Below, in pieces: positions 1 through 64,000 of a stretch of 64,000 bases of DNA. Position 1 is the first letter of the stretch. Each line of letters opens with the position of its first letter. This DNA is from Ginglymostoma cirratum. Its lineage: Eukaryota. The translations under genes were made by a program, and so were the position numbers. Below the pieces are notes generated by a model. That model was not told the origin of the DNA. It did no database searches and saw only the letters and a list, made by a program, of their open reading frames with translations. The stretch covers positions 16,848,069 through 16,912,068 of the forward strand of contig JAHRHZ010000283.1 in NCBI GenBank assembly GCA_024137785.1. Reading direction: 5' to 3'.

Positions 1-53
1 CTCTGATGCTGCTTGGCCTGCTGTGTTCATCCAGCTCTACACCTTGTCATCTC
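1..53 (+). mobile_element. Truncated arm of Penelope-like short element (family B)
   Basis: ctgatgctgcttggcctgctgtgttcatccagctctacaccttgt is near-identical to 61102-61147 and reverse-complementary to 60996-61046 and 63380-63428. Confidence 0.75.
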
Positions 54-2705: not shown

Positions 2706-4289
2706 TTATTGTTAAAAATTTGTAAAAGGCATAATTCTTGACAGATCATAAAAATTCATGTTTAAAAATTTTAGTTCAGACTAAAATAACGAACAGACGC
2801 AAGGCCATTTCACCTCTTGAACTCACGGCAGTGAGACCTAAAAGCTTGCTTTTGGCAAAACTTCAGTTTCTCTCTCTTGCTTATCGTAATTGGCAGTGCT
2901 TGAAATTTAACACATTAGTTGCTGGATTAATCAGATGATTTTATTTGTATTTGCCCTTGCATGCATTATTCTGTACTTATGAATAGAAGTACCAAGTCTG
3001 TTGAAAGTAAGGAAATGCCATACGTTTTTAGAATCTCTTAATTTAGCAGAAAATATCTTAACTTCCATCTCCTCACTTTATCCTTTTGTAGGATTTAGCT
3101 GAATGGAAATATTGCTCTGAGAAAACTTTTTGAGTTTAATAATTAGGCGATCATTATTATAATGATAGAGCAGTTAGTGTGCCAGTCGAATTTTCTATTT
3201 GATCAGAGTAGCAAATGAGAAGATAATTTATTGGCTCAATGAACAATCTTAAGTAAATCTATGTCAGGTGCTCACAGTTGTGATAAAGCAAATACCTCAT
3301 TTATACATCTTGATACTTGAAATAAGGGGTATAATTTGCTGTAAATGTGAATCTAATGACGTTATTAAGTAAATTTATTCTTTCATGTTCATGTTGTACA
3401 AAATGTATAAAGACCTGCTGCAAAAAATTGTCGCATCTGCAACATGAGTGAAACAGAGCAACAGTATATCTCCGTAATCAAATTGAAGCATTGTTTATTT
3501 TTCAGTGCAGGGGCTGAGAAGGAGCTGCAGATTAGAGTGAGTGAATTCTGATGTCAAAACTACTATGGAGATAGAAAAGACCAGACTCCTTGAGAAAGAG
3601 ACAAGGAAAAGATGGCAAACATTTAAATACGTACATTTTTTAAAAAAGCTTAAACAACAAGTAATACCTGAAGGAATGAGACTTGACATTTATTCTTCCA
3701 CATGGGTTCTTCATTATTCTATGACATCACGAGTACTTACACAACATATGTTGCATAGTTAATGTAATTTACTTTTGTAAGTGTATAGCTGACTGTGGGA
3801 TTATACAACTGATGTTCATGAGCTGAATTCTAATTTTCAAGAATAATCTTTCCTTTTCTTTCAGCTTTCTCTTTCTCATCTTTTTTGGCTTGCCATTCCT
3901 CTCACACTCGAGCTTCAATTTTTGCAAATCTGCAGATTGGGGTCCCAATGTTGACTTTGGAATAAAGCAGGAGGATATTTTCACAGAGCTCCTGCTTTGC
4001 TTTCACCTTCAGCCTAAAGTCACCCAAGCAGCGGGGGATGCTTTAAAAAAATTGACACATGCTGAAATCTCAATTGGGCCAAGTTTACTTCATCTGTTCA
4101 CCACAAGTTTGTCCTTACCCTGACAATATTCAGGCTGTGCAATATTCTGGCTGCAGCAGGTGTAAAGGTCTTACTGCTGACAGCTAGGTCTTTCTGTTGC
4201 TGTGCTGCTCACTCTGCTTCCTGAGCTCAGAGGTCCACTGCGCAAATTGATGCAGGAAAATTGTGGGCACTTTACTTCAGAAATGAGGC

Positions 4290-5178
4290 ACTCCCCAAGT
4301 TCACACATATCTAGCTTGGAGGGTGAGCTGTGAGGAGGATGTAGAGTTGATTTCAACAAGTTGAATGAGTGACGAATGCATGGCAAATGAACGATAATAT
4401 AGATAAATGTGAGGTTAGGTACTTTGATAGCAAAAATGGGAAGGTAGATTCTTATCTGAAAGGTGTTAGGCTGGGAAAAGTGGAGGTGGATGCAACAAGA
4501 GCTGTTTCCTTGTACGTGCTGAAATCAAGGAAGCAAGTGCAGCGTGCAGTGAAGAAGGCAAGTGGTAAATAGCAAGAGGATTTGAGTACAGGAGCAGGGA
4601 TATCTTGCTGCAGTTGTGGAATTGGGTGAGGCCACACCTGGAGCATTGTATGCAGCTTTGGTGGTCTTGCCTGAAGAAAGATGTTCTGGGGATGGAGGGA
4701 GTGCAGTGAAGGGTTACCAGACTGATTTCTGGGATGGCAAGACTGATAGATTGGATCAGTGAGGCCTACATTTACTGAAATTTAGCTGGATGAAGAGGAT
4801 CTTATGAAGAGAAATTTATAAAATTCTAACAGCTAGGCAAGGTAAATGGAGGAAGGATGGTCCCGATGACCAGGGAGTCCGTAACCAGGGGTGATGGTTG
4901 AAGGATACAGGGAGACCAATTAAGACTGAGATGAGAAATTTCTCTACCCAGACAACGAGCGAGCCTGTGAAATTCCTGCCACAGAAAGCAAGTGGTTGAA
5001 GCCTAAATCTTGAATGGTTTCAAGGAGTTAGATACAGTTCGTAGGGCTAAAGGAATCAAAGGGTATGTGGAGAAAGCAGGAACAGGGTATGGAGTTGGAT
5101 GATCAGCCGTGATCGTGTTGATTGGTGGAACAGGCTGGAGGGCCTGAATGGCCTGCTCTGGTTCCTGTTTTCTATGTT
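4290..5178 (+). mobile_element. CR1 LINE, 5'-truncated 3' fragment (RT C-terminus + 3' UTR)
   Basis: Decayed WQM..N.DKCEV and gtgaggccacacctggagcattgt (VRPHLE.C) motifs; CR1 tail ggcctgaatggcctgctc...ttctatgtt. Confidence 0.9.
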
Positions 5179-5465
5179 GAGAATGTACCTTTGGTTTGCA
5201 GGAAGTTCTGGAAGAGAAGTTGGAAAAACTTCACTTTTTTCAACACAATTCAGCCTCCTCTGTTGATGTTGCTTCACTTCAGGAGGATGTCACAGATCCT
5301 GGGCTCAGTCGCAGTTGGGGCCGACTTGGAACATTGGACTGATTGCACTTCAGTTGGTTTGAAGCTCTGCTCTTCCCTCAATTTTCTGCGTCATTTGCAG
5401 GGCTTATAGTCACCCCTCATGTTCAACTCACCGCTAATCCTCTCTTTGTTTGAGAGAGCGAGAGA

Positions 5466-5597
5466 GACAGAAATTGCTGAGAAATCTCAAACATGCTGAA
5501 GAAGGGCCAGTGGAACCGAAATGTTAACTCTGCTTTCTCTCCACAGTTGCTGCAAGACCTGCTAAGTTGCCCCAGCAATTTCTGTTTCAGATTTCCA
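5466..5597 (+). mobile_element. Penelope-like short element (family A) with decayed hammerhead-like motif at 5496-5530
   Basis: CTGAAGA-A-GGGCCAGTGGAACC-GAAATGTTAACTC followed by the family arm; short inverted left arm cagaaattgctg. Confidence 0.7.
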
Positions 5598-5673
5598 CCT
5601 CCCCCCCCACCTCAATCTCTCTCTCTCTCCCCCTGTTTTTTCTCTCTCTCTCTCTCTTCCCCCACTCCCCCCT
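5598..5673. repeat. C-rich/(CT)n low-complexity tract
   Basis: Poly-C and tctctc runs seen directly. Confidence 0.85.
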
Positions 5674-6467
5674 CAATAATGACAGAGACACCTGTGGACC
5701 TTGGGGACAATGGCGACTTTCACTTCACTTAACTTGCAATTTCAGAGATTAAGCTTGCTTGCAAATCTCAAAACTTGCTATTTAGCCATTCGGCGACCCA
5801 GCTTGTTGGCTCTCAGTTGTGGCGATTCAGTGGATTCTGCTGTTGGAAATCTGAGGTGTCATTTCTGAGCTGAGTCAAACCTGTATTGTGTATTGAAAAC
5901 GATAGCGTGCATCTAGAGAATGTGGGAATAAGCTAGGAACTGCCTCTGAAGCTAAAGAACTTGCCCATTGAAAGTTAGGAAGCTCACACTCATCTCTACC
6001 AGTCGCCACTCGACGGTGAGGATACATCTTTCCGAAGCCCCAAGACAGCTTTGGGAAGGACTGATGGTGTTTCTAGCTAGGTCCTACCTTCTTCTTCATG
6101 TTGTGGAGAAAGAAACTTGCTTTTGTTATTTGCTGCAAGCAGCCCGGGGATTTAATTTCCATTTACAGGCAGGCTTTTTCACTTCTTTTGCAGCCCGTAG
6201 CTTTACATTTTTTAGGTAATAATTCACACCTCTGATTTTATGCTCATAACTGAGAAGCAAGTGGGCAGGCCGGTTAGAGTAGGATATATTTATGCGTGCA
6301 ATACACATTTTAAATCAATGGAACCAGCCAAAGAAAGAAAGGTTTATTATGCTTGTCAAATGCTTCCTTCTGGTATGCGTCCGAACTTTGAGGGAAACAA
6401 AGGTGATTTTTATTTAGTTGCCGCTGAATGACAGCAGTGTTTCGGTCAGACAGTGCTGCTTCTATAG

Positions 6468-6699
6468 GAGAAATGTTCTGATAAAGGATTGCATTGTAAT
6501 TCTGAGTGCACCAGGGATTGCTGCTGCTGCCAAATGCCGGCTGTGTCACTGCTTCCAAAGATCCAAACACAGGAGGGACAAGTGGAGCAGCAGCTGACAT
6601 CCCCAGGCGACGGGAGCAGCCGGTATTTCAGACCAAGCTGTTTGCTGCTGTGGCGTGGAATGTGAAGTGTAGCAAAGCCTTTTTGAGATGCATTAAGAG
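6468..6699 (+). other. Candidate non-coding (5' UTR/first) exon
   Basis: Perfect donor GAG|GTAAGT at 6699/6700; GC-richer unique sequence; weak acceptor tctatag at 6467; contains a closed 43-aa ORF (6534-6665) and no ATG-initiated frame crossing the donor. Confidence 0.35.
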
Positions 6700-6977
6700 G
6701 TAAGTGTGATTCATTTGACCAGCATTGGATTAGATTTTCAACTTGCGTTCTTGTGGTGTCACACCTTCTAGGTCTTATTCATACTTTCTTACTCCTCGTA
6801 TTCTCCCTGCTTCCACTGTTGCTTGCAAGGTTGCATTGCATTGCTGGACTGTGACTGTGCTGCAGAAAGTAATGCTTTTGTGGGATTTAATGCTCCAGTT
6901 ACATTGGCTCTGTCCCTTCAACTAATGTCTCTTACAGGCTGTGCCTGGAGAGCAATTCTACTCGAGCTTTTGAAGGT

Positions 6978-7056
6978 CAAAAACCACAGGACACCAGGTT
7001 AGTGTCCAGCAGGTTTATTTGAAGACACAAGCTCTGAGTCTCTCTCCTTCTTCAGA
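6978..7056 (-). mobile_element. Penelope-like short element, family C fragment
   Basis: acaccaggttagtgtccagcaggtttatttgaagacacaagct...ctccttcttcag; reverse strand reads CTGAAGA-A-GGAG...CTC-agagctt (decayed hammerhead-like layout). Confidence 0.55.
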
Positions 7057-7069
7057 GTATCTCCACCAA

Positions 7070-7192
7070 CTTGAAAACAAAAAATGCTGGAAATCACAGC
7101 AGGTCAGGCAGCATCCACCGAGAGAACAAACTAACGTCTCAAGCTTAAATGACTCTCCAGCATCTCTACCTGCTTCCGGTATTTATTGCTGT
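7070..7192. mobile_element. Decayed Penelope-like short element
   Basis: aaaatgctggaaatcacagcaggtcaggcagcatc arm with partial inverted arm tccagcatct...acctgct. Confidence 0.6.
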
Positions 7193-8744
7193 CATGCATT
7201 AGATCTCCTCGGTGTCTAAGAATAGTGCCCGTCTAGGGTGGTGTATCATCTGCCCATTAATCACTGGATAGGTCAAAGATGAAGCAAGGACAAAAGCGGC
7301 TTTGATCTCCGTAAACTACTTAAAAACAAACTTTATCAAATACCACTTCGTGGTAGAGGGGCAAATACCACAAGGTACCAGAAATGGTCATTTGGTAAAA
7401 TGCCAGAGATTGAACTTTCTTTGTCAACTTACTTGGTATCTCAGCTATATTAGTGTACTTTGAGATGTTGAAGGTTGAGCACATCAGAGCTGAGGCTGAT
7501 AAGATGCCAGGTAAGCTTTGAACTCATAATTTGCTGAGTTGGATGTTCTCAAACGAAGGAGCAACAATTACCTTCAATCTCCTCAGGATATTGAGAAGGG
7601 AGAGAGAGCCCAGTATTCCTACATGCTTGTTCCCTTGATCCACAGTGCTGTTGGAAAGTAGGTGTGTATTGTGATTCACTAAGGAGAAGGGCCAATATCA
7701 TCAAGGTGGTTGATGGCACTAGGTTTGCTGTATCCTGCTGTCGGCAGGAAAAAGGTCTGCGTACCTCCATCATGCAGCACAGAAAAATTCAGAGTGAACC
7801 CGTAACTGGTTCTGAGATAAGAAATGGTGCAGCTTGAATTCAGATGCAGTGGCACAGAGGAGTCATTGATGGATCGTAATGTTACGATGCATGCAGCAGC
7901 TCAGCACTAAGCTGTGCAATTGAAAACTGTAAGACCAGGGCACTAGAAGGAAATCAACTCCTTTTCAGCTGCAATCAGCAGAGTATGCTGAGCAGAACTT
8001 CAGTGCAGTGAATGGAGGCAGTTTGGGAATCTGCTGAGGTCAATATCCAATCTGTTATAGAGAAGAAACTACTGGTGTGGTTGTCATTGGATTCAAGTGA
8101 TTTTACATGTATTTGATAGTAATTTGACACAAAGGAAAATACTGTGCATGAAAGCTCAGCTGGTCTGGCAGTACCTATGGAAAGAAAAATAGAGTTAATG
8201 TTTTCAGTCGAATGTAATTCTTTCTTGGATTTGACACAATCTATTTTAATCAAACTCAGTTCTTGATAAAGTGAATGATTTGCTTGTTAACAGGTTTAAA
8301 TTTGGACAGTGTGCTTTCAAAATGTCAAGATGTTTTGAGAGATTGTGGTGCAGGAAGACCTTAAAGAGCCTTTCATATTTTTAAATTGGGAATTGGTTAG
8401 GTTCATTAAAATATCCACACTTAATCCCACCTCACCATCCCCACATTTTTGTGTTTTGATTGTTAAATTGGATGCCTTGCAGTGTTTGGAAAAGTTTTGA
8501 ACATCACATCCAAGCAAGCTGCCAGAAAAAGTAGTTTCTTGAAGCGTTGGAATCTCCAGTGATGTGCAGCAAGTTTTTAAGATGCTGGCATCCAAGAAAA
8601 GAAAGCTGCCTGCTGGGGATTATGTTGCCAAAAATCAGGTCCTTCTGTGGAAAGTATTGCTGCCAGAGACATGTGTTGAAATTCCCATACTGTGAAGAAG
8701 ATGGAGCCGCAAAAAACATCAGTGGGAATTGTCTCTAAGCTTCA

Positions 8745-11700
8745 AAACAGTGTGGTGAGGTATGCAATGGCATTAAACAGGAAATAAGAAATGCACGCAA
8801 CAAAGATGCTACAGTAATCATGGATAATTTTACTTTCTACAGACTGGGCAAACCTTATGAGCATTAGCGCTGTGGCAGATGAATTCCTGAGGTGTGCACA
8901 AGAAGCAATGTTAGATCAGCACGTTGAAGAACTAACTTAAGAAAGACTATCCCAGATTTGGTTTTGTTAAATGACAAGCAGTTGATTTAATAACGTTGTT
9001 ATTAATTAATAAACTGAAAGGAAATCATGACCATAATCTGATGAATTTGTTCATCGGCATAGAAAGTGAAGTCCATCTGACATCATTCCCACATCTAAAC
9101 AGATGACCCCAAAATTGGAGGTGAAGTAGGCAGCGAAGAAGGTTACCTTAGAGCACAATAGAATATGATCAGATGGGCCAGTGGGCCAAGGAGTGACAGA
9201 CGGAGTTTAATTTAGATAAATGTGAGGTATCATATTTTGGAAAGGCAAATCAGGGCGGGACTTGTACATGGAAAGATAAGATCTTGGGGAGTGTTGCCGA
9301 ACGAAGAGACCTTGGGGTGCAAGTCCATAGTTCTTTGCAAGTGGAGTTGTAGGTAGATAGCATAGTGAAGGTGGTGTTTGGTATGCTCGCCTTTATTGAG
9401 TATAGGAGTTGGGAGGCGATGACATTAGTTAGGCCACGATTCGAATACTGCATGCAATTCTGGTCTCCCTACTATAAGAAGGATGTTGTGAAACCTGAAA
9501 GGGTTCAGAAAAGATTGACAGGGATGTTGCCAGTCTTAGAGCGTTTGAGCTGAAGGGAGAGGCTAAATAGACTGGGGCTGTCTTCCCTGGCGTCTTGGAG
9601 ACTGAGGGGTGACCTTCTAGAAGTTTATCTAATCATGATGGGCATGGATAGGGTAAATAGACAAGGTTTTTTTCTCTGGGGCAGGGGAGGTCCGAAACTA
9701 GAGGGCATAGGTTTCAGGTGAGAGGGGAAAGATGTTAAAGGGACTTAAGGGGCAATTTTTACATGCAGGGGGCGGTGTTGTCTGGAATGAGCTGCCAGGA
9801 GAAGTGCTAGAAGCTGGTGCAATTAGAGTATTTAGAAGACATTTAGATGGACATACAGATAACAAGGGTTTAGAGGGATAAGGACCAAATGCTGGCAAAT
9901 TGGACTAGATTTATTCGGGATATCTAGTCAGCATGGATGAGTTGGACCAAAGGGTCTATTTTTGTGCTGTATATCTCTGACTCTACGACTCTAAAGGCAA
10001 TTGTAAGAAGCTATGAGGGGTGAGTTGGCTCTGGTGGACTGGGTAACTTCATTACCACTGTGGCCAAGTAATGGTTAACATTTAAGGAGTTTTCTTTGCT
10101 GTAGTTACACATTCCCTTCAGATGAAAGAACTGAGCAGGAAGAAGTGACCTATTAGGTTTCACACAAGAAACTTAGGGAAGTACTAGATCCATAAAGGAG
10201 TCATATGAAGTTACTGGAAGTAGCAAGCCTGAAGATTTTAGGAGCAGTTTGTAATTTAGCATGGGAGAACCAAGAGGCTGATTTAGATGGGAAAAGTAGA
10301 GTTTGAGAGTAAACTTAGAAACCACATTAAAGGAGCTTCTATAACTATGCTAAAGATAAAAGATTAGTAAAGGCAAATGTGAACCCCTTGCAGTGAAAAT
10401 TAGTGGTAATTGAGAACAAGGAAATGGCAGAGCTATTAGACAAAACTACTTTTTTGTTCTGTCTTCACAGAAAAGTTCCGAGAAGTATTAGCAAAGCAAG
10501 GGCCATTCAGAAAGGAGGGATTGAAGTAAATTAGTATTCGTTTAAAGAAAAGCAGTGGAGAAATTAATAAATTCCCAGAGCCTGATAACCTACACGCTCG
10601 GATACTAAAAATGTTTGCCATGGAAATAATTGATGTGACGGTCATAACTTAGAAAACTTTGTAGGGTCTGGAAAAGTCCTGGCAGATTGCAGGGTGGCAA
10701 ACATAACTCCACTGTTTAGAAAATAAGAGGGGGACAAAACTAGGAATTACAGACTGGTTAGCCGAACATTAGTCAAAGGGAAATACTGGAGTCTATTGCA
10801 CAAAGTCAATATGGATTTATCAAAGAGAAATAATCTTTGACAAACCTACTGGGGATTTTTTTGGGGGCATATATAGTAAATTAGGTGAGGTAGAACCAGT
10901 GGATGTGGTGCATTTGGATTTTTGGAAAGTTTTTGATAAAATCACACGTAAGAGGTTATTGAGCAAAATCAAAGTATTTGGGATTGATGATAATACACTG
11001 ATGTTGATTACAATTAGTCAGCAGACTGAGCCAAACAGTAGGAATAAATAGATCATTTTCAGAGTAGGAAGTGGTGACAAGTGGGATATTGAAGTGACCA
11101 GTGCTTGAGCCCCAGCTATTCACAATGTGTCATCAATGGCTTAGATGAGGAAGTCTTGTGTAATCTTAGCAAGTTTGCTGACAAAAGAAAACTAGTTTGG
11201 AGTGTGAGTGGTGTGGACAAGGCTTCAGGATGACTTAGACAAGTTGAGTGACTGGACAAATACCAAATGCCATATAATGTGGATAAATGTGGTCTTGTCC
11301 ACTTTGGGAGGAAAAGCAGAATAGCAACATATTATTTAAATGGTGATAGATTGGAATGTGTTTCTGTACAAAGGGACCTGGGTGCCCTTGTATTCTGGTC
11401 ATTGAAAGCAACAGGTATTTGGCCTTCATTGCAGGCGAGTTTGGTACAGAAGCAACAAAGTCTTAGTGCTGCTGTACAGGGCCTTGGTGAGACTCCTTCT
11501 GAAGTATTGTGTGTAGGTTCAGCGTCCTGAGCCGACTAAAGATAGACTTGCCATCGTGGGAGTACAGTGAAGTTTCACCTAACTGATTGCTGAGATGGCA
11601 GGTTTGTCATTTTGGGGCCAATTGACCCTGTATTCACTGGCCTACAGAAGAACGAATGGCGATCTCATTGAAGCATATAAAGTTCTGACAGGGGACTGGT

Positions 11701-15299: not shown

Positions 15300-15412
15300 C
15301 ATTTGAAGGAAGGTCATATCAGGCTTGAAACATTAACTGACTCTCTCTTGATAGTTGTTGCCAGACCTGCTGAGTTTCTTCAGCATTTTTTGATCTTGTT
15401 TTTGTTTTGTTT
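15300..15412 (+). mobile_element. Decayed Penelope-like short element (family A)
   Basis: ttgaaggaaggtcat...gaaacattaact...ttgccagacctgctgagtttcttcagcatttt. Confidence 0.65.
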
Positions 15413-15805: not shown

Positions 15806-16335
15806 AAGAAAGATTTGCATTGGTCTAGCAGCTTCCTCCATCAGGATCTTACAAAACAATTTGCAGCTAGTTAAGTACCTTTATAAAGTGATATACATTT
15901 GCAGCAAATAGTGCAGTCAAATAGGCATAGTAAGATTCCACACACAGCAGTTACACAATCAAAAGCAAAAATTACTGGAGAAACTCAGGTCTGGCAGCAT
16001 CTGTGGAGAGACAGCAGAGGTCATGTTTCAGGTCCAGTGACCCTTCTTCAGAATTGGGTTCTACAAGTTCTGCAGTAGGATCACTGGACCCGAAACATTA
16101 GCTCTGCTTTCTCTCCACAGACGCTGCCAGACCTGCAGAGTTCCTCCAGCAATTCTCATTTTTGTTTCAGTTTCCGGCATCTACAATTCTTTGATTTATT
16201 ATACCAGTTACAGAATGGCTGATGATATTTTTGATCTCTGTTTAAGAAGATGAGTGTTGAAGAGGAAACTGAGAGCTTCCTTGAACGTTCTTACACACCA
16301 CTGTAGTCTTTTATATACACTGTGAGGTGAGACAA
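15806..16335 (-). mobile_element. DeuSINE/SacSINE-like SINE interrupted by a Penelope-like palindrome
   Basis: aagaaagatttgcatt...gcagctagttaagtacc...cacacacagcag; resumes after 16205. Confidence 0.55.
15956..16204. mobile_element. Fold-back Penelope-like element (family A), hammerhead-like motif in each arm
   Basis: About 90-nt inverted arms 15961-16053 and 16068-16165 around a short spacer; minus strand CTGAAGA-A-GGGTC-ACTG-GACCT-GAAAC; plus strand CTGCAGTA-GGATC-ACTG-GACCC-GAAAC; direct repeat cagttaca at 15948-15955 and 16205-16212. Confidence 0.85.
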
Positions 16336-19404: not shown

Positions 19405-21015
19405 TTTTGATTAGATTTATTACTATTACGTGTACCTAGGTACAGTGAAAGGTGTGTGCAGTACAGGTAGATCATACCACATAAAGTGTATAGGGGTAAT
19501 AGTACAGAGCATGGAATACAATATTATGGCTGCAGAGATTGAAGAGTTCGCCTGTTAATCTGCAACTTTTTAAGCAACTTCTTAAGGACTCTTCCAAACC
19601 AAAAGATTGAGTGCAGACAGAGAGCCTTCTGGATTTCCGGACGCTTCATGATGCTACACAGATTAGTGTTTGTCAATTGCTTTTTGTTTGTTTTTGTTGT
19701 CACCTGTACTGAAATACAGTGAAAAGCTTTGTTTATGAGCAGTACAGTGGTACTGGAAAGAGGCTGTTCCTGAACCTACTTGTGCATGTGTTCAGGCTTC
19801 TGTATCTTCTGCCTGACGGAAGGGGTTATAGAGGTTATTACCAGGGTGTGATGGTTCTTTGATGTTGGCCGTCTTTCCGTGGCAACGGGCCGTGTAAAGA
19901 GAGTCCATAGATGGAAGGTTGACGTCCATGATGGTCTGGGCTGTGCACACAACCTTCTGTAGTTTCTTACGTTCCTGGCAGAGCAGCTGTTGTACCAGGC
20001 CGTTATGCACCCAGACAGTATGCTTTCAATGCTGCGTCTGTAGAAGTTGGTGAGGATCCTCATGGACATGCCAAATTTCCTGAGCCGCCTGAGGAAGAAG
20101 AGGTGTTGTTGTGCTTTTTTGACTGTCACATTTACATGGGAAGTCCAGGACAGGTCATTGGTTATCGTCACTTTGAGGAACTTGATGCTCTTTGCTCTCT
20201 CAGCCTCAGTTCTGTTGATGTAGATGGAGGTGTGTTCTCCTCCTTTCTTTCTGAAGTTGATGATCAGTTCTTTAGTTTTGCTGATGTTGGGAGACAGACT
20301 GTTTTTGTTGCACCACGTCACCAAGCCCTCTACCTCCCTTCTGTATTCTGACTCGTCGTTGTTAGATATCCACCCCGTCAATTGTCAATCTAAGGTGGTG
20401 TCGTCAGCGAACTTGTAGATGCTGTTCGTTCGGAATTTGGCAACACAATTGTAGGCGTACAGCGAGTACAGTAGGGGGCTGAGGACGCATCCATGGTGGG
20501 GTGGGCGGGTGTGGTGGTGCGCGCTCCGGTGTTGAGAGTTATCGTGGAGGAGGTGCAGTTGTCTGTCTTCACTGATTGCGGTCTGTGACTCAGAAAGCTG
20601 AGGATCCGGTTGCAGAGGGCAGAGCCAAGACCAAGGTCAAGGAGTTTTGAAACCAGTCTGGAGGGGATAATGGCATTGAAGGTAGAGCTGTAGTCAATGA
20701 GCAGGAGTCTGACGTAGGTGTCTTTGTTGTCCAGATGTTCCAGGGATGAGTGCAGGGCTAGGAATATGGCATCCTCTGTTGATCTGTTATGTTGGTAGGC
20801 AAACTGTAGGGGATTGAAGCAGGTTGGGAGACTGGAGTTGATGAGGGCCATGACCAGCCTCTTGAAGCACTTCGTGATTATTGAGGTCAGATCCACTGGG
20901 CGATAGTTATTAAGGCACACTGCATGTGTTTTCTTGGGTGCAGGGATGATGGTGGTCTTCTTGAAGCAGGTGGGACCCTTGGCTTGTAGGAGGGAGAGTT
21001 TGAAGATTAGTGTTC
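19405..21015 (-). mobile_element. Rex1/Babar LINE, 5'-truncated, frameshifted RT with 3' tail pieces
   Basis: ORF 20390-21046 ([49 protein letters not shown]) and ORF 19776-20381 (SKTKELIINFRK, KKAQQ.LFFLRRLRKF, FYR.SIESIL..CITAWY); IYKFADDTT at about 20394-20420; tail motif tacagtgaaa at 19441 and 19716. Confidence 0.93.
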
Positions 21016-21249
21016 GTGCAGAGCACATCATCAATGTTTGGACCATTTAACGTGATCGTGGTACTTAAGAATCAAGCAATCTACTCGAACTCAGAATTTT
21101 ATGTTAAGTGTTTGTAGTTACAGTTTAACATGTGAATAATCTATGTTTGACTTTTACCTATAATCAGTGTCTTTCAGATGTAGAGGTGAGCTGCCCTGAA
21201 TTTTAAGTTAGTTTATTGGTGGTCTTTTTAGAGAATGCTTACCTAAAAT

Positions 21250-22985: not shown

Positions 22986-24044
22986 CCTTTTACTGACTGC
23001 CAGGCTATGGGATCATGAATGGGGTCTGAATGTTTGCATCAGCAAGTCATCCATTCACAAGTGAGCGCTAGCTTTCCCTGTAGAAGACATTTCTAAAAGC
23101 AGCAAAATTGGTTAATAATTCACTCAGGTAAGTCAGGCTCCTTTATACTCAACAAATACAGTGATAATGTTTTACCCCATGTACAGAATTATTTTCAGCA
23201 ACAAATAGCCATTAAAGTTTGTAAATTTCTTAAGACTAATCATCAGTGCCATCAGGCAACAGTGAAGTCTGATGAAGAATTAGAATCATTGCTCAAATGA
23301 TCCAGTAGAGACAAAAGAATCCATTTGGCTTATCATCTGGAATACAGTGTTCACTTGTGGTGCCGTCAAGTAATGGGAGTACGTAATCATTATGTAGTAC
23401 GTAACTGCAAGGTCTTTAATGAAAACAAAAAGCTAGCAGAATGGACTGGTTATTTGTTTAAAAAGCTTTGATTAAGGTATTCAAGATAGTAAGACATTTG
23501 ATGATTGTGTTTTGGCTCAGAGTCGAGGGGAAACCAAGGCAAATAAATGCAACACGCCAGGGCAACAGATGTGTGGGTCATCAGCACATCCAAGTCTCCT
23601 GTCAATGCAAACACCATCCTGATTTGGACACATTGTTGGATTGATTCCTTCATTGTTCAGTGAGTCAAGGGAGACAAGTGTCTTTTCTAACATGTTGCAT
23701 TGTGATCTTAAATGCACTGCCTCAAAATGCAAAGGAAGACATCTTTAAAAAAAAACATGTAGAGTGCTGTATTGGAGAATTGCAATAACGAATTCAAAGA
23801 TACAACCTCGACAAAATGGGCTGAATGGCCTCCTTCTATGCTGCAAGATTCCACTTGCAGTAAAATTTGTTGTGATCATTTGAACTTTGACATTCTTGCA
23901 TTAGTCCTGATGATTGGAAAAGAAATTGGCAAAATGTTTGTCTCTTCAGTATGTCTTCTATGTGACCTATTGACTGACTATAATCAGTATAGGTAGGAAT
24001 GAGAAAAAATGGGGAGTGACCATACTGACCAAAGATGCTGTTAC

Positions 24045-24082
24045 AGTTTTGAGGAAGGGTCACCGGACCCGAAACGTTAACT
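24045..24082 (+). ncRNA. Minimal type-I hammerhead-ribozyme-like motif (C3 changed to U)
   Basis: AGTT (stem I)-TTGAGGA-A-GGGTC-ACCG-GACCC (stem II)-GAAA-CGT-T-AACT (stem I'); helix III is the loop-less palindrome ACGT. Confidence 0.65.
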
Positions 24083-24142
24083 CTGTTTTCTCCTCCACAG
24101 ATGCTGCCAGACCTGCTGAGCTTTTCCAGCAACTTTGTTTTT
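24047..24142 (+). mobile_element. Single-arm Penelope-like short element (family A) with exact 13-bp TSD
   Basis: gatgctgttacag at 24034-24046 and 24143-24155 flanks the element. Confidence 0.88.
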
Positions 24143-24199
24143 GATGCTGTTACAGAACTTGAATTGCAGAATAATAGAGAAATTGCTGGCTACAATAAA

Positions 24200-26553: not shown

Positions 26554-27344
26554 CCCCTTAGCGTACTGAACACCAGTTAATTTGGCATATCCTAACTAGT
26601 CAAGTTGCTGGTACCAGGTCATGCAAGGGTTCCATTCATTAATGTCTTAGTTCTGGTGTTGTCAGCAGTCTTAGGAGCAGGTTTGGATTTCATTTGCAAA
26701 ATGATAATGTGTATTTTGTGAAAACAACTGGTCCGGTTATGGTTTAACATTTGTGATGGCTCAGAAGACTCTTCTGGTTTCCTTTCTGGTAATAGAATAA
26801 ATAAATTTAAATAGAGTGGATGCGTGATTCTGGCCTCTAATACATTCAAAGATGGTTCTTCAATGCAAAATTCTGTAGTTGCGAGAAACCTCGAATGGAA
26901 AGTGCTGGAAGCATTCAGCAGGTCAGGTGGAATGCGTGGAAAGACAAACTGAGTTAACGGGTCGAATTCTCCCAAGCTGTGGGATGGCCAGAGTGTTTTG
27001 TGGGGGATCAGGAATTTAAGAGGACAGCTGGTGTCCCAAGCCGCCTGAGGACATTTCCCTGTTGCCTGGTTCCTCTTTAAACAAGTTGCAGACAACTCCA
27101 ACCAGAATGTTATGAATGAATTTGCCCAGGTGCCCCACAATACCAAAGCGGTCACATCAATACGAGCACAAGCCGGTACCAAAAAAGTTTATTAGGATCA
27201 AAATTTCAGTAATTTTTAAACCTAGACGTATTATCCCTAATCCTACTTGCCTGCTTATGATTACAATACTTCCCAAATCTCTTGTAAATTTACACGGTTG
27301 CGCTCGGTGTGGCTGTGTCTCTGGGTCTGTAAAACTGCTTTCTC

Positions 27345-35199: not shown

Positions 35200-35281
35200 G
35201 ATATGATATGTATGGTTAGTGCGCGAAGCAATACTTTTCACTGTATCTCAGTACACGTGACAATAATAAATCAAATCAAAC
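35200..35281 (+). mobile_element. Rex1/Babar-type 3' tail fragment
   Basis: cttttcactgtatctcagtacacgtgacaataataaatcaaatcaaa is the reverse complement of tails at 19405-19452 and 19695-19727. Confidence 0.65.
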
Positions 35282-39718: not shown

Positions 39719-40056
39719 GGCGGCACAGTCGCTCAGCGGTTAGCACTGCAGCCTCACAGCACCAGGAATCCAGGTTCAATTCCGGCCTCAGGCACCTGTC
39801 TGTGTGGAGTTTGCACATTCTCCCCCTGTCTGTGTGGGTTTCCTCCTACAGTCCAAAGATGTGCGGGTTAGGTGGATTGGCCATACTAAATTGCCCACAT
39901 TGTTCAGGGATGTGTAGGTTAGGTGGATTAGCCATGGGAAATGCAGGGTTACAGGGGTAAGGTAGGGGGGAAGGTTCTCGGTGAGATGCTCTTCAGAGAG
40001 TCAGTATGGACTTGTTGGGCCAAATGGCCTGTTTCCACACAGTAGGGATTCTATGA
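39719..40056 (+). mobile_element. HE1 SINE (V-SINE), near full length
   Basis: tRNA head ggcggcacagtcgctcagcggttagcactgc..., B box GGTTCAATTCC, V-domain gtgtggagtttgcacattctcccc...cagtccaaagatgtgc, CR1-type tail ggccaaatggcctgtttccacac.gtagggattctatga. Confidence 0.92.
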
Positions 40057-40358: not shown

Positions 40359-43300
40359 ATTCACTCATTGAATGTGAGCACTGCAGGCAAGACCAGCGTT
40401 TGTTGCTCATACCACGTTGTCTTTTGGAAGCTTTGTTGAGTTGCTTTCTTAAACCTATTAATTGAATGTTGGAGGCAATGTGAGTTTGAAGCTGTGGAAC
40501 TCTTGCATCTTGACCTAGATGCGGTGGATGATGTCAGGATGGTAAGTGGCTTGGAGGGGAACTAACAGGTGGTGGTGCACCCATGTCTTTGCTGCCGTTG
40601 TCTTTCTAGGTGGTGGAGGTTGTGGCAGTTGATGCTGGAGAAGCCTCAGAACCTTGAAGAGATGTTGCTGTTCTTATCACTTGACTGGGAAGAGTACGAT
40701 AATAATCATACCCTACTTTTTCATCAGCCATCTCAAAATGGAATAATCCCAATGAGACTACCACAGCGACTAAAATTTGCCCAAGTGACTGCTGCTCAGG
40801 ACAAAAATAATTCCCGCCTCATCTGATCACTAACAGAAAAAAAAAGTCTCTTTATTTTAACACTCATAAATTCAGCAGAAAAGCAGGGAGAGATTTCTAA
40901 GTTACCACTGAGCTACCTAAATTATACTCCTTCAAAGTGTTCAAGCAGACATGTTTAAGACAGATAAAAGACACTGGTAACAAGGGTGGAGAAACAATAT
41001 AAAGACAAGATGATTATAATTCCAAAATCATAAGTTCACGTTTCAAAGGTGTGTTAAATTATGTGCCAGCCATTTTTTTTATTATTTACACTGATAGCAA
41101 GTTCGTGCCTGGAGTCACGTTGTTGTTCTTCAACTTGACAGTGAATCAAGTGGACCGAAGTCGCAGTGTTAGAAATCTTTCCTTAGAGCATTCTTGGCTT
41201 TTCTGTGATGTGGAACAAGTGACAGATTCATCTCTCCCTTGCACTTTCAGGGTCTGGATGTTTCTTTCTCTGCTGCCCTGGTATTTACAAGTGCGATACT
41301 TCGCAGTTTATCCAATCACAGAGCTACCGTTGGGCAGAATGTCTTTAACTCAAAAGACATTCGTGCTGTTCACTCTCTCGTTCTCCCCCTCAGTGCTTCA
41401 CAAAAGCAACATTGTATTGCACAGCTGAAAAATACGAAACACTTTAAGAATCAAAGCTCAACTTGTATTTCATTTGTTAAGTAGTCGAACTTTGATTTCA
41501 TCTTATAGTTGCAAAAAAAAACATATGTCATCTCCGCAGTGCATCTTGTACATTGCTGTCACTGTGCATCAGTGATGGGAAAAGTGAACGTTAAAGGTTG
41601 TGAACGCGGTGCCAATCAAGTGGGCTATTTTGCCCTGGGTGGTGTTAAGCTTCTTGTGTTATTAGAGCTGAGCTTAACCAGGCAAGTGGACAGTATTCCC
41701 TCGCATTCCTGACTTGTGCTTATTTGTTCGTCAATAGGCTTTGGGCAGTCAGGAGATGAGTTACTCACTTCAGAATTCTCAGCCTCTTACTCTGAGAACT
41801 ACAGGTTTGCAGACAGGTCGACTTAAATTTCTAGTCAATGATAACTCCCAGGATATTGATGATGGGGGATTTGTTGATTGCAACATTGTTGATTTGCTAT
41901 TGTTGAGGCTGGTTTTGCCTGGAATTATTGTAATTTGTTTCAGTTGGCTACTTAGCAGTCTGATGCTGATGGAAGTCTTAGTCTCGGTTTTGCTGCAGAT
42001 GGGAGAGACTAATTCATTATCTGAAGAGTTGTGAATGCTGCTGAACATTGTGCAATCATTCATGAACGTGCCACTTCTGACTTGATAGATAGAAGGTCAT
42101 TGATGAAGCAGCTTAAGGGGATTTGGGCCTCGGAGACTATATTAGCTATGTAGAGGGCTTGTGTTCAAGCCCCAGAGGTGTGTTGTAATGTCTCTAAACA
42201 AGTTATTAAAAATATCTATGTTAGCTACGACTCCAGCAATATTCATGTTCCCCAGTTCTCTTCAGTTTTGCTTGGGTTCCTTGGTCAAATGCTGCCTCCA
42301 TGTTAAGAGCAGTCACTCTACCTCATCTCTTGATTTCACTTCTTTTGTCCATGGTTGGTACAGCCTGTGATGAAGACTGAAGTCGAATGATCCTGGTAGT
42401 ATCATAATTGAGTATCGGTGTGTGGGTTTTAAACGACTAATTACAAATTGATAGAACTGTCAATGGCACCTTCTGTTATTTTGATGATTAAGCGTAGTTT
42501 GATTACAACAGTAATTGGCTACAATGAATGTTTACAGCCTTCTGTGGAAAGGATATCCCTGGACAATTATGCACATTAAGTTAGTTTTGTCGTTGTCTGG
42601 GAAAAGCTCCATGAGAAGTGTGGCAACTTCCAAGGCATATATCATCTTCAGTACAGATGGGATGTCGTCCGAATCATATTTTTATGTATCAAGCGCACTC
42701 AACCATTTTTGGATATCCTGGGGAGTGAATCAAGTTGGTACAGTCAGTTATAATAGTGACCTCAACAGGAGACCGAGATGGATCATCAATTTTTGGTTGC
42801 GAATGCTTCAATCTTGTGTTGAGCACCTCTGCTGGGTCCTGCCATCATTGAAGATGGGGATATTCGTAGACTGCCATTATTTGTTCAATTGCCCACCAGC
42901 ATTCTGAAATGTCATAACTGCAGAACTCTAACCTGCTACGCTAGTTGTGAGATTGTTGAACTCCATCCATGGAATGCTGATTCTGGAGTTCAGCATGAAT
43001 GTGGTCGTATGTCGCGATTCTACCAAATTGGTTGCTCATTTTTGCTGAAACCAGATATTGCTACTGACATGATCTCCTACACACTTCTTTCAACCTGGGC
43101 TGATCCTCTGGCTTCATAGTAGAGTGAGGGGTATATTGGGCCTAACGTTACAAATTATGATGGAATCTAATTCTGCTGCTGTGGGCCACAGCACCTCATG
43201 GGTCCTAGTTTTTAGTTGCTAGATCTGAACTGAATCTATTCCATTTAGTGTGGTGTTAGTACAACATGATAGAGGGTCACCACTGTGTGAAGGCAAAACT

Positions 43301-48819: not shown

Positions 48820-49630
48820 ACGGATATGGCAGTCACTGGCTGGGTTCAGCACTTATTGCCCATCCATAGCTGCCCTCGAGTAGATGGTGGGCTGCCTTTT
48901 TGAACCACTGCAGTTCATGTGGGTTGACCCACAATGCCCTTAGGGAGGGAGTTCCAGGATTTTGACCCACTGAAGGAACTTTAATATATTTCCAAGTCAG
49001 GATGGTGAGTGGCTTGGAGAGGAACTTGCAGTTGGCCCTATTCCCATGTGTCAGCTTCCCTTATCCTTCCAGATGGTGATAGTCATAGATTTGGAAGGTG
49101 CTATCAATGATGTTTTGGTGAATTTCTGTGGTTTGTCATGTCGCTGGTACACACTGCGGTGACTATGCATTGGTGGTGGAAGGAGTGAATGTTTGTGGAT
49201 AGGGTACCAATCAAGGGGGCTGCTTTGTCCTGGCTAGTACCAAGTTTCTTGAGTGTTGGAGCTCCATCCATACAGGCAAATGGAGAGTATTCCATTCCAC
49301 TCCTGACTTGTGCCTTGTAGATGATGCACAGGCTTTGGGGAGTCAAGAGGAAGGGTACACACTGCAAGGTACCGAGCTTATGACCTATCCTTGCTGATTC
49401 AATGGTAATGCCGCTAAATCGCAAGCAACAGTGGTGAGATTCTCTTTTGTTGGAGATGGTCATTGCGCTGCACTCGAGTGGCTAAAAAGTATACTTCCCA
49501 CTTGTCAGGCCAAGCCTGGACATTTTCTAGCTCTGGATGCATTTTGATGTAGACTGCTTCATTATCTCAGGAACTGTGCCTATCGGGGAGCATTATAAAA
49601 TCATCAGCAAACATTCACACTTCCGACCCT
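48820..49630 (-). mobile_element. CR1/L2-group LINE 3' fragment (same family as 40359-43810)
   Basis: ORF 49104-49463 LLTPQSL..IYKAQVRS.MEYSP...KKL...QDKAA.LIG. Confidence 0.85.
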
Positions 49631-56149: not shown

Positions 56150-56273
56150 AAGAATCCAAATGCTCGAAATCAGAAATAAAAAACAGAAATTTCTGGAAAA
56201 GCTCAGCAGGTCTGGCACAATCTGTGGAGAGGAAGCAAAGTTGATATCTCGGGTCCGGTGACCCTTCTGCAGA
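56150..56273 (-). mobile_element. Single-arm Penelope-like element (family A)
   Basis: ctggaaaagctcagcaggtctggca...cgggtccggtgacccttctgcagaa; stem II intact, core decayed. Confidence 0.75.
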
Positions 56274-56556
56274 AGAAGGAAAATCAGCAATGCAATGAAG
56301 GGGAAAATTCCACTATCGTTCCTTAATTTCAAGTTTAAGAGAAGATCCCATATTCCTCCGAGGTCATAATTTTGACATCAGCAAACCATGGACTCATTGA
56401 GCAAAGCTATAACATTATTGCGCATCTGTAGAATTGGATAACTCGGCGGTTTTGAACCGTGAACTGAAACGGATTTTAACCTGGGCTGATGCTGACAGCA
56501 GTTTTGGCATAAACTCTTCGATCTTCTTTTGAGAGTGGCCAGCTTTTACATTATGG

Positions 56557-56708
56557 CAAATAAAAACCGAAAGAACAGCGGATGCTGTAAATCAGGAAAA
56601 CAGAACTTGCTGGAAAAGCTCAGCAGGTCTGGCAACATCTGTGAGGAAAAAATCGGAGTTAACGTTTTGGCTCCGGTGACCCTTCCTCAGAACCGTTTTT
56701 GTTTGTGT
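56557..56708 (-). mobile_element. Penelope-like element (family A) with exact 13-bp TSD and hammerhead-like motif at 56656-56694
   Basis: ttttacattatgg at 56544-56556 and 56709-56721; reverse strand GTT-CTGAGGA-A-GGGTC-ACCG-GAGCC-AAAA-CGTT-AAC. Confidence 0.85.
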
Positions 56709-59969: not shown

Positions 59970-60790
59970 CTGGGGGCAGTGCACGTCTAAAGAAATTTAG
60001 ATGGTCTGTGTATCCAGATCACTAAAATCCAAAAAATGGCTAATGAAATGTTAGCTTTTGTAAGTAGAGGGTTAGAATGGAAAGGGTGAATGTTTCACTG
60101 TTGCTGTAAAAGAACTTTGTTAATACTGGATGCTGAGTGGAGTTCTATGCAATGAAGTTTAGGAGTATTTACCTTGAAACCTCTATAAAGGTTCACCAGG
60201 CCATAACCAATGTTACAGTCGACCATGAGAGGCTCAATAAATTAGGCCTGTGAGCCCTGAGGAGTAAAGGTGTGACATGTCGGCTCAGTGGTTAACACCG
60301 ATGCCTCACAGCGCGAGGGACCTGTATTCGATTCCAGCGTCGTGCGACGGTCTGTGTGGGTTTCTGTTGGGTGCCCTGGCTTCTGGGCATAGTCCAAAGA
60401 TGTGCAGGCTAGGTGGATTAGCCATGGCTAATGCAAGGTTGGGTCTGGGTGGGATGTTCTTCAGAGGGTCAGTGTGTGGTTGGTGTGGAGTCAATGGGCT
60501 GAATGGCCTGCTTCCACTCTGTAGGGATTCTACAATTTTATGAATATCGAAGCTAATTAAATTGATGTCTGTATATTTAAATGAATTGATTAAATCAAAA
60601 CATCTTTCCACTTCTGTGGGAACGTATAGAGCAGAGAGATGTAACCTTAAACTCAGAACTTAACAACGTAGTCAAAATGTTTGGTAACACTGCTTTACAT
60701 GCCGTTTGGTGGAAGTGAGGAACTCTGTCTCATCTAAAATGCAAGTTGAATGAGTAATGTTAATCCAGAAATTGATGGATTTTTGCTAAT
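59970..60790 (+). mobile_element. Old CR1 3' fragment interrupted by HE1 SINE
   Basis: aaaatggctaatgaaatgttagcttt...agagggttagaat; aaggttcaccagg; resumes after 60545. Confidence 0.6.
60270..60543 (+). mobile_element. HE1 SINE with internal deletion
   Basis: ggctcagtggttaacac.gatgcctcacagcgc head, ttcgattcc B box, agtccaaagatgtgcaggctaggtggattagccatgg, tail aatggcctgcttccactctgtagggattcta. Confidence 0.88.
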
Positions 60791-60881: not shown

Positions 60882-61300
60882 TCAAAATATTGCAGATGCT
60901 GGAAATCTGAAAGAAGCACAGACAATGCTGGATGTCCTCAGCAGATCTGGCAGCATATGCAGGGAGAGAAACAGAGCTAATTATGAAGAAAGATAGAGAT
61001 AACAAGGTGTAGGGCTGGATGAACACAGCAGGCCAAGCAGCATCAGAGGAGCAGGAAGGCTGACGTTTCGGGACTAGACCCTTCAGAAATTCAGATGCTT
61101 TCTGATGCTGCTTGGCCTGCTGTGTTCGTCCAGCTCTACACCTTGTTAGCTCAGATTCTCCAGCATCTGCAGTTCCTACTATCTCTTTATTCTGAAGAAG
61201 AATCTTACTGGACTCAGAAATGTTAACTCTGTTGCTCTGTCCACAGACACTACCAGACCTCCTGCATTTGTCCAGCATTTTCTGTGTTTGTCCATCTTTG
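60882..61300. mobile_element. Outer fold-back Penelope-like element (family A-like) split by nested insertion
   Basis: Left arm 60885-60980 (tgcagatgctggaaatctg...tctggcagc...gagagaaacagagctaa); right arm 61191-61300 (ctgaagaag...gaaatgttaactctgtt...ccagacct...tccagcattttctgtg). Confidence 0.75.
60994..61187. mobile_element. Inner fold-back Penelope-like element (family B)
   Basis: agataacaaggtgtagggctggatgaacacagcaggccaagcagcatcaga and its reverse complement at 61101-61152; minus-strand GGGTCTAGTCCC-GAAAC-GTC at 61062-61081. Confidence 0.85.
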
Positions 61301-62959: not shown

Positions 62960-64000
62960 GAGAGTGCAGGAGAACATGCCAGGAGTAGCACTAGGCCTAC
63001 TTAAAAATGAGGTGACAACCTGGTGAAGCTACCAAGCAGGGCTGTTTGCCTGTCAAACAGCGTAAACAACAAGTGATAGACAGAGCTGAGCTGACAATGA
63101 GATCTAAGCTCTGCAGTCCTGTAACGTTCAGTCTTAATGGTGGTGGACAATTATGATCAAACTAAGAGGAGAAGGACATTCTACAAATATCTCCATCCTC
63201 AGTGATAAGGTATCCTAACACATGAGTGTAAAAGACAACATTAAAGCATTTGCAACCATTTCCAGTTCGAAATATCGAGCGAGTGATCCATCTTAGAGAA
63301 GAGGCTAGATTCCTAGAATCACAGGTGCCAGTATTCAGTCAGTTCAGAGATAATAGGTACTGCAGATGCTGGAGAATCTGAGATAACAAGGTGTGGAGCT
63401 GGATGAACACAGCAGGCCAAGCAGCATCATAGGAGCAGGAAAGCTTGATGTTTTGGGCCTAGACCCTTCATCAGAAGGGTCCTGTGCTCCTATGATGCTG
63501 CTTGGCCTTCGGTCAGTTCAATCTGTTACAGTTGATTTCAAGATATGGCTGAAGGCACTTGATACTGCAAAGGCTATGAGCCTTGACAGCGTTTTTGCAA
63601 ACGAGCTTAAAACTTATGTTATGAATTTAGTCACATCCTTGTCGAGCTGTTCCAGTACCGGGAGTCATGCCCAGCACAAAGGAAGATGTTTGTGGTTGTT
63701 GGAGGTTAGTACTCTCAGTTCCAGGAGTTGTTTAGAATAATGTCTTAGGCCCAAGCATTCTGAAGTCTTATTAATGATCTTCCCTCCATCATAAAGGGAT
63801 ATTTTTGTTGATGATTGCACAATGTTCATTCTCCGCTTGTCTAATATTGAACCAGTCAGTGCGCACATACAGCAAGAACTGACCAACCTTCGGGCTTGGG
63901 CTGATCAGTGGAAAGTAACATTCTTGAACCTGTGTGACAGGCAATGATTATCCCTAACCAAAAAGATCTAACCATTGACCTTGACAGTCATTGGCATTAT
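62960..64000 (+). mobile_element. CR1/L2-group LINE RT fragment (same family as 40359-43810), runs off window end
   Basis: LKALDTAKAM..D; gttgatgattgcacaatgttc (.DDCTMF); gcttgggctgatcagtggaaagtaacattc (AWADQWKVTF). Confidence 0.82.
63347..63507. mobile_element. Family B Penelope-like element with 13-bp TSD (12/13) inserted in LINE
   Basis: ttcagtcagttca 63334-63346 and ttcggtcagttca 63508-63520; short inverted arm 63481-63507; minus strand CTGATGA-A-GGGTCTAGGCCC-AAAAC-ATC at 63448-63474. Confidence 0.85.

Follow-up and report, generated by a model that had tools for sequence, protein, structure and literature searches.

Judged from their sequences, the dispersed repeats that carry a minimal hammerhead motif in a 64,000-nt stretch of the Ginglymostoma cirratum genome ("the window") are end-pieces (ca. 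100–140 bp) of the pseudo-LTRs (pLTRs) of Penelope-like elements (PLEs) that encode a reverse transcriptase (RT) and a GIY-YIG endonuclease. These end-pieces ("stubs") are probably insertions of pLTR ends, i.e. short cDNAs of an RNA left uncut, whose predicted start is the hammerhead's first base; the template is taken to be uncut because the copies span the predicted cut site. A preliminary description of the window had proposed separate non-autonomous, retrozyme-like families. Instead, the sequences proved to be the pLTR of ORF-bearing elements, and no tandem arrays were found in the window or the sampled stretches. Its term "ORF-less" holds for the window copies and fails for the family, which has ORF-bearing members. 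The existence of several families was borne out: seven family majorities were distinguished in two groups, A and B.

The copies form a very abundant family set in this shark genome, and no description of it was found in the literature searched. Profile searches of 80 evenly placed 10-kb stretches (385,367 called bases) yielded 104 hits, i.e. ca. 270/Mb. Extrapolation to the 4.36-Gb assembly gives about 1.2 million copies, or roughly a million, a density that may be off twofold because about half of the sampled 800 kb consisted of N; the sample was also biased toward short copies.

At 24045–24082, stem I is formed by a 5' strand at 24045–24048 and a 3' strand at 24079–24082. The core occupies 24049–24055, with C3 changed to T, and is followed by an extra A (24056), a stem II of 5 bp (24057–24061/24066–24070), GAAA (24071–24074) and CG-U-H17 (24075–24078). 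The cut is predicted to fall between 24078 and 24079. The first two bases of the 5' strand as proposed, 24045–24046, are also part of the left target-site duplication. By motif comparison, the layout originally described (CTGA-N-GA, extra A, stem, GAAA, then CGTT or CGTC) was confirmed at all nine places listed in the 64-kb window. As claimed, N7 (G, A or T) and H17 (T or C) vary among these copies, and each of the nine was found by eye to have a lesion in the core or a stem. The nine places were not the full set, however. The repeat unit (95–140 bp) exceeds the motif, and profiles built from the window's own copies located 18 places belonging to groups A and B (Table 1). With offsets counted from the A of stem I (offset 0), 8 of the 12 mapped window copies begin at offset 0–4.

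A relaxed form of the motif matched six times in the window and not once in any of 50 dinucleotide shuffles; this comparison is lenient, as the pattern was derived from the window copies themselves. Reversed-sequence controls gave no profile hits. The scan with hammerhead models that had been advised was carried out with Rfam: 10 matches at E ≤ 10 were returned for the window, none of them to a hammerhead, and the miRNA matches coincided with inverted (head-to-head) pairs. A functional C3-to-U subfamily was considered, given that a U3-A8 hammerhead variant is known (PMC4209133), and was rejected. G8 is unaltered, the T of the best matches stems from the query, nearly all of the protein-selected copies have C3, and at three loci (L031, L035, L036) the T of the direct copy is matched by a C in its inverted partner.

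Table 1. Stubs, motif and flanking duplications in the 64,000-nt window
Feature	Position	Strand	Remarks
Solo stub, family A Penelope-like pLTR	24045–24142	+	98-bp insertion, from hammerhead first base to shorter usual 3' end
Minimal type I hammerhead motif	24045–24082	+	C3 to T at 24049
Left 13-bp target-site duplication	24034–24046	+	last 2 bases common with element start
Right 13-bp target-site duplication	24143–24155	+	partner of 24034–24046
Decayed family A-type stub	5494–5593	+	5' end at offset 4
Left arm of head-to-head pair	15960–16053	−	short 3' end
Right arm, paired with 15960–16053	16066–16207	+	long 3' end, tail; 12-bp outer duplication, 1 mismatch
Family A-type stub	56160–56274	−	A6 and A14 changed
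Family A2 stub with tail	56559–56693	−	G12 to A; 13-bp flanking duplication
Family B2 left arm of head-to-head pair	60996–61090	−	3-nt core deletion
Family B2 right arm	61101–61186	+	begins downstream of ribozyme; tail present
Older family A4-type stub	61190–61291	+	profile
Family B1 stub with tail	63340–63476	−	G12 and G16.2 to A
Decayed head-to-head pair	1969–2080; 2097–2142	−; +	profile; absent from earlier list
Family B fragment	1–53	+	profile; cut by window edge
Old diverged copy	7072–7162	−	profile
Old diverged copy	8132–8212	−	profile; lacks 5' half of motif
Old diverged copy	15304–15397	+	profile
Old diverged partial copy	26894–26967	−	profile
Old partial copy, 3' part only	60915–60981	−	profile

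The connection to a coding element was established from both the repeat and the protein. Among the 30 loci closest to 24043–24145, many have upstream DNA in common for up to 1.6 kb, with varied 5' truncation and with inversions, and the upstream DNA of 24045-like loci encodes RT and GIY-YIG pieces. The stub at 24045–24142 is ca. 94% identical to an ORF-linked copy (L064). In 20 of 20 loci drawn from a protein search (160,832 first-look candidates, 125 scored), the motif shares the strand of the ORF and lies downstream of it, mostly ca. 260 bp past the stop; the proposed link to RT + GIY-YIG ORFs thus exists. A piece from locus L062 matched RVT_1 (E = 1.6e-7, above the cut-off) and GIY-YIG (E = 0.0016, below the cut-off), and one from L061 had no Pfam match. 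Protein homologues numbered 324; most of those listed carry RT or GIY-YIG marks, and the best named ones are from sharks and rays. Three homologues (P0002, P0026 and P0076) are Penelope ORF pieces that have been annotated publicly as isoforms of host genes.

At locus L069, two 359-bp repeats, 91% alike, flank the ORF in a pLTR-ORF-pLTR arrangement, and the pLTR-ORF junction of this locus recurs in 40 of 40 scored hits (out of 1514 candidates). Group B references follow ORFs of their own, which are about 50–60% alike to those of group A. Partial-tandem pLTRs and inverted, 5'-truncated copies of the kind known from EN+ PLEs were found (at L069, in the junction hits and in the head-to-head pairs). 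A DKG motif occurs in one frame of L069; matches to "FDKG" were discarded, as they are not this motif. A CxxC is located between GIY and YIG in four of five protein pieces, the first motif reading LVY. A CX2-5CxxC linker precedes the endonuclease in L002, L070 and L074, the latter two constituting two of five pieces in one motif check. Such a linker is common to Neptune and Nematis (PMC8557442) and, by motif alone, points to one of these rather than to Poseidon.

The first AUG is found at offset 56, in phase with the long ORF, whose AUG is at 173. Of the 25 copies L158–L182, 18 have the offset-56 frame closed after 30 codons, and its counterpart in the window is 24101–24142. Ahead of each AUG (offsets 56 and 173) there is an acceptor-like pyrimidine-AG; an upstream ORF and a 5' UTR intron are suggested as alternative readings of the short frame. 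At L009 and L241, a stub is joined directly to a piece from the element's own ORF start, suggesting a template jump or self-insertion.

Copy ends were mapped in the window and in 120 unselected stretches, together 825,796 called bases with 166 copies. Scoring was confined to the 104 copies (25 A, 79 B) that matched a natural reference at 85% identity or more. The 3' ends fell into two clusters ca. 36 bp apart, corresponding to an optional 30–40-bp Penelope tail: 21 of 25 A ends were at offsets 99–106 or 132–139, and 60 of 79 B ends at 93–101 or 126–135. For the 5' ends, 30 of the 79 B copies were set aside (masked or cut 5' flank, or reaching the end of the reference), which biases the sample toward short copies, and a further 11 B ends lie farther upstream. 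Of the 63 copies whose 5' end lies within ±60 bp of the motif, 32 have it at −2 to +3 (A, 12/25; B, 20/38), and only one A and one B copy (2/63) have it within 3 bases of the predicted cut (offset 32 in B); a uniform null for end positions is crude. Four long copies (L163, L173, L176, L182) also begin at the first bases of the hammerhead. In public contigs, the top loose ends in four of four runs (three studies) were at L069:5921–5925, the first base being 5924 (best 24 of 462 rows); the cut site was too near the end of the stretch for scoring in that analysis. These contigs, of guessed or unknown kind, hold the element, and no RNA start, cut or splice was seen in them.

Target-site duplications of 13–16 bp were seen. 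Duplications belonging to a single copy were scored for 12 of 73 copies (pair members included, the one at 24045 missed), versus 4 of 1477 control pairings. There were 25 head-to-head pairs among the 166 copies. An outer duplication was present in 18 of them (12–16 bp in 14) and absent in seven, as judged by a laxer test (nine matches) without a control of its own. Because such a pair lies inside one outer duplication, it is read as one insertion. The stubs also cluster, with four pieces abutting at 60915–61291, and B stubs are nested inside A pLTRs (L044, L063, L065). Clustering and nesting are consistent with the cutting of its own pLTR by the anole enzyme.

Upstream of the motif, TATA-like hexamers were positioned consistently: in 265 copies, 92 of 97 upstream-window hits were at −29 (A) or −31/−32 (B). 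The hexamer is the sole one, or one of two, in ca. 3 kb of four of five long A copies and of three B references. At L069, no TATA-like hexamer was found at either pLTR. The upstream regions of A and B are distant relatives (ca. 80% alike over 50 bp), so that A and B do not count as independent lineages. The bases around offset 0 fit the pyrimidine-A initiator consensus. An initiator of the form BBCA+1BW has been described (PMC5287114). Among 25 junction copies, 18 run 35–470 bp upstream past the proposed start (the query favored such copies), which requires either longer templates or a jump between templates. The other seven comprise four that start at −4 to +2, one at +9, and two beside masked sequence.

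The TATA-like box and the initiator-like site would make the RNA begin at the A of stem I. The first ca. 138 bases would then be present at both RNA ends, so that the RT start region would be carried twice, and the two 3' ends of the stubs would mark internal RT start sites, as in the anole element, for which internal RT starts, priming by both strands and an uncut RNA template have been reported (PMC11167929). RT starting at the 3' copy would give the usual 5'-truncated elements, and RT starting at the 5' copy would give a cDNA of 100 or 138 bases that runs to the cap, i.e. a stub. Priming by both nicked target strands would generate head-to-head pairs. Stubs, having no TATA-like box, would be dead ends whose decay would be fastest at C11.1-G12 and C15.2-G16.2.

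Across the seven family majorities (A1 and A2, which a sequence pattern did not separate, counting as one family), all 11 core positions are invariant, compared with 32 of 72 downstream columns (Fisher p = 4e-4, the families being related); the excess core conservation that had been named as a check of the hammerhead reading is thereby borne out. The majorities vary at N7 (A/G/T) and H17 (T/C), and 15.2–16.2 is CG, or TG in A4. They contain the features of the minimal hammerhead (C3–A9, G12–A15.1, U16.1, H17, an extra base between 9 and 10.1, G10.1–C11.1) and, with the extra A and the palindromic 15.2/16.2, fit the minimal type I class of Penelope pLTRs to which the motif had been assigned. 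Stem II (4–5 bp) is paired in 50 of 50 cells, with one two-sided change (A4) and wobble changes; stem I has 4 bp in A and B4, is weaker in B1–B3, and is 77.5% paired overall. Covariation, also named as a check, was weak and not significant: one two-sided pair was found in 10 natural copies, 60 of 500 shuffles scored as high, and stem I was out of register in two rows. The minimum-energy monomer folds of five copies contained stem II, full or partial, and a complete hammerhead in none (0/5), which is uninformative because such folds are expected of a dimer motif. Published minimal hammerheads cleave weakly and solely as dimers (PMC4209133), and that of the anole element needs the element's protein for cleavage (PMC11167929).

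Within a family, core positions show no better retention than the control ones, and both CpGs of the core (C11.1-G12 and C15.2-G16.2) fall to 50–90% in most families. Core and stem II are both intact in 73 of the 406 copies fetched, in 25 of 119 taken without selection and in none of the nine window copies; the window lesions are therefore not a family trait. A core that is invariant between families and loses CpGs within them argues for selection in the source and neutral decay after insertion. In source elements the ribozyme has probably been under selection, yet it is seemingly dispensable for insertion.

It is quite possible, if tentative, that the ribozyme acts as a brake: a cut at the 5' copy would take off the capped first 32–34 bases, and one at the 3' copy would separate the ORF from the RT start sites. 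A broader scheme is regarded as doubtful. It would have Penelope RNA begin with the ribozyme and carry a ca. 138-base terminal redundancy comparable to an LTR's R region; the million stubs would be integrated "strong-stop" cDNAs, RT jumps would rebuild the pLTR, and the ribozyme would be a cap-removing brake. If this were true, an RT jump to the 3' copy would restore a promoter-bearing pLTR, and the 18 of 25 junction copies, with their variable upstream pLTR, would represent such jumps. Schostak et al. saw no obvious mechanism for rebuilding the pLTR of D. virilis Penelope, which has a TATA-less internal promoter (PMC2377424).

The 5' pile-up of the same stubs could also be due to an RT that begins at the 3' pLTR and stalls, or is cut off, immediately past the hammerhead fold, or to a splice acceptor. 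Family A has a branch-point-like sequence directly before the motif and an acceptor-like AG at the hammerhead start; in D. virilis, the 3' end of an intron coincides with helix I's 5' end (PMC4209133), and the promoter just cited is TATA-less and internal. Family B, however, has no AG at the hammerhead start and yet exhibits the same 5' peak. The short copies have no upstream exon in common, most junction copies extend past the site, the distance to the TATA-like box is constant in both lineages, and spliced joints with canonical ends were absent among the 15 of 94 joints listed. A stall or an acceptor is thus considered unlikely, and an RNA start at the hammerhead is preferred. With regard to the head-to-head pairs, self-priming on an antisense template was put forward for rotifer elements on the basis of junction palindromes (PMC3846280). 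Here, the arms of a pair often differ in their 3' site (about 100 versus about 135), both carry sense-strand RT-start ends within one duplication, and the anole protein extends both strands (PMC11167929). Priming by both strands is therefore favored, and self-priming is judged quite improbable.

The view of the preliminary description, i.e. independent non-autonomous families, retrozyme- or SINE-like, that use Penelope enzymes, would account for the very many short copies with target duplications of their own, and transcription of the stubs could persist if they had an internal promoter. Animal retrozymes are pLTR derivatives, and monomers are known, but non-LTR retrozymes are defined by tandem repeats in which at least two hammerheads are complete (bioRxiv 10.64898/2026.07.22.740005). 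No such arrays were encountered in the window (0 TRF rows) or the sampled stretches, where just two close same-strand pairs were found among 166 copies in 826 kb of called sequence. Further, the copies span the cut site rather than begin there, and short copies are almost identical to ORF-linked pLTRs: those of B4 are 94–100% identical to the pLTR of ORF-linked locus L072, several of them 99–100%. Family A4 (including the copy at 61190) comes closest to that view, having no upstream TATA-like box in 18 of 18 copies, and no common upstream sequence or ORF-linked copy among 25 loci; an upstream pLTR is present in 2 of 20 copies of A2 and 5 of 25 of A3. A non-autonomous origin of A4 is conceivable on these sequences, and for the families at large it is held to be very unlikely. 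Finally, the likeness to a hammerhead might be a coincidence in a repeat conserved for other reasons. The empty Rfam result, the weak covariation statistic, the weak stem I of B2 and B3 and the incomplete monomer folds (in which stem II does form) would accord with this. The family variation, however, sits on N7, H17, loop II and pair-keeping changes of a fully paired stem II, the core is invariant, and fish PLE pLTRs are known to carry hammerheads (PMC4209133). Coincidence is accordingly deemed extremely improbable.

All structural components (pLTR hammerheads, tails, inverted copies, solos), like the class itself, have been published before. The minimal hammerheads described from PLE pLTRs by Cervera and De la Pena (2014; PMC4209133), reported there for Xena, Poseidon and Neptune of fishes, likewise have no helix III loop, an extra base between 9 and 10.1, G10.1–C11.1, a palindromic 15.2–16.2 and a short helix I; they, too, form many families, in which most motifs stand alone and are attributed to truncated PLEs. 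The stem II of 4–5 bp is a difference, the copy number here is far higher than the 4,000–9,000 motifs given for coelacanth and Xenopus (by a different counting method), and no mention of sharks was found in that paper. The EN+ Neptune/Nematis PLEs of Craig et al. (2021; PMC8557442) resemble the present elements in having an RT followed by a GIY-YIG with internal CxxC, the CX2-5CxxC linker, DKG, partial tandems, an inverted 5'-truncated copy and a 30–40-bp tail; the shark copies differ in their clear duplications of 13–16 bp, and no microsatellite preference was noticed among them. The Poseidon element PAc of Anolis carolinensis (Frangieh et al., 2024; PMC11167929) has two 3' ends matching internal RT starts, an uncut RNA template and priming of both strands, features here deduced from genomic copies. 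Its ORF begins in stem II, whereas the first AUG here is 56 nt after the motif start and mostly closed, with the long ORF at 173. No mapped RNA start was found in the description of PAc.

Pen2a of Adineta vaga and its relatives (Arkhipova et al., 2013; PMC3846280) share a pLTR with a putative TATA box plus initiator, inverted pLTRs placed head to head, a tail, target duplications (8–10 bp there) and solo pLTRs. They differ in their few copies; the solos there are without duplications and were ascribed to recombination, and antisense self-priming was favored. Non-LTR retrozymes (Li et al., 2026; bioRxiv 10.64898/2026.07.22.740005) are similar in being ORF-less and pLTR-related with a type I hammerhead and in occurring in one chondrichthyan, and differ in the tandem repeats discussed above. 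In the openly accessible literature searched, no paper dealt with these shark families or with 5' ends located at the edge of the ribozyme; the supplements of PMC4209133 and of the bioRxiv preprint may list shark families, and Fig. S2 of PMC11167929 may show a 5' pile-up. The pile-up at the ribozyme, together with the promoter features, is a modest mechanistic lead. The sharply defined 5' end, the TATA-like box upstream of it and the insertions in pairs amount to a cheap in vivo record of Penelope replication that bears on the RNA start, on pLTR rebuilding and on the role of a ribozyme that is seemingly dispensable for insertion.

Other repeats were noted in the window. A broken non-LTR RT (RVT_1, E = 6e-9) is located at 19776–21046 on the minus strand, and the next frame matches ALKBH8_N. 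We take this fragment to resemble a Rex1/Babar-type LINE. Short inverted matches (19406–19734 and 35226–35280) near its 3' side are probably the 3' end of the LINE and a related copy. A Pfam search of 41782–42096 gave no match. A further dispersed repeat at 40533–41772 and 48996–49366 (73–76% alike) is probably a LINE remnant. A repeat whose head is tRNA-like occurs twice, at 39731–40053 and 60283–60532; it presumably resembles the HE1-type SINE of sharks.
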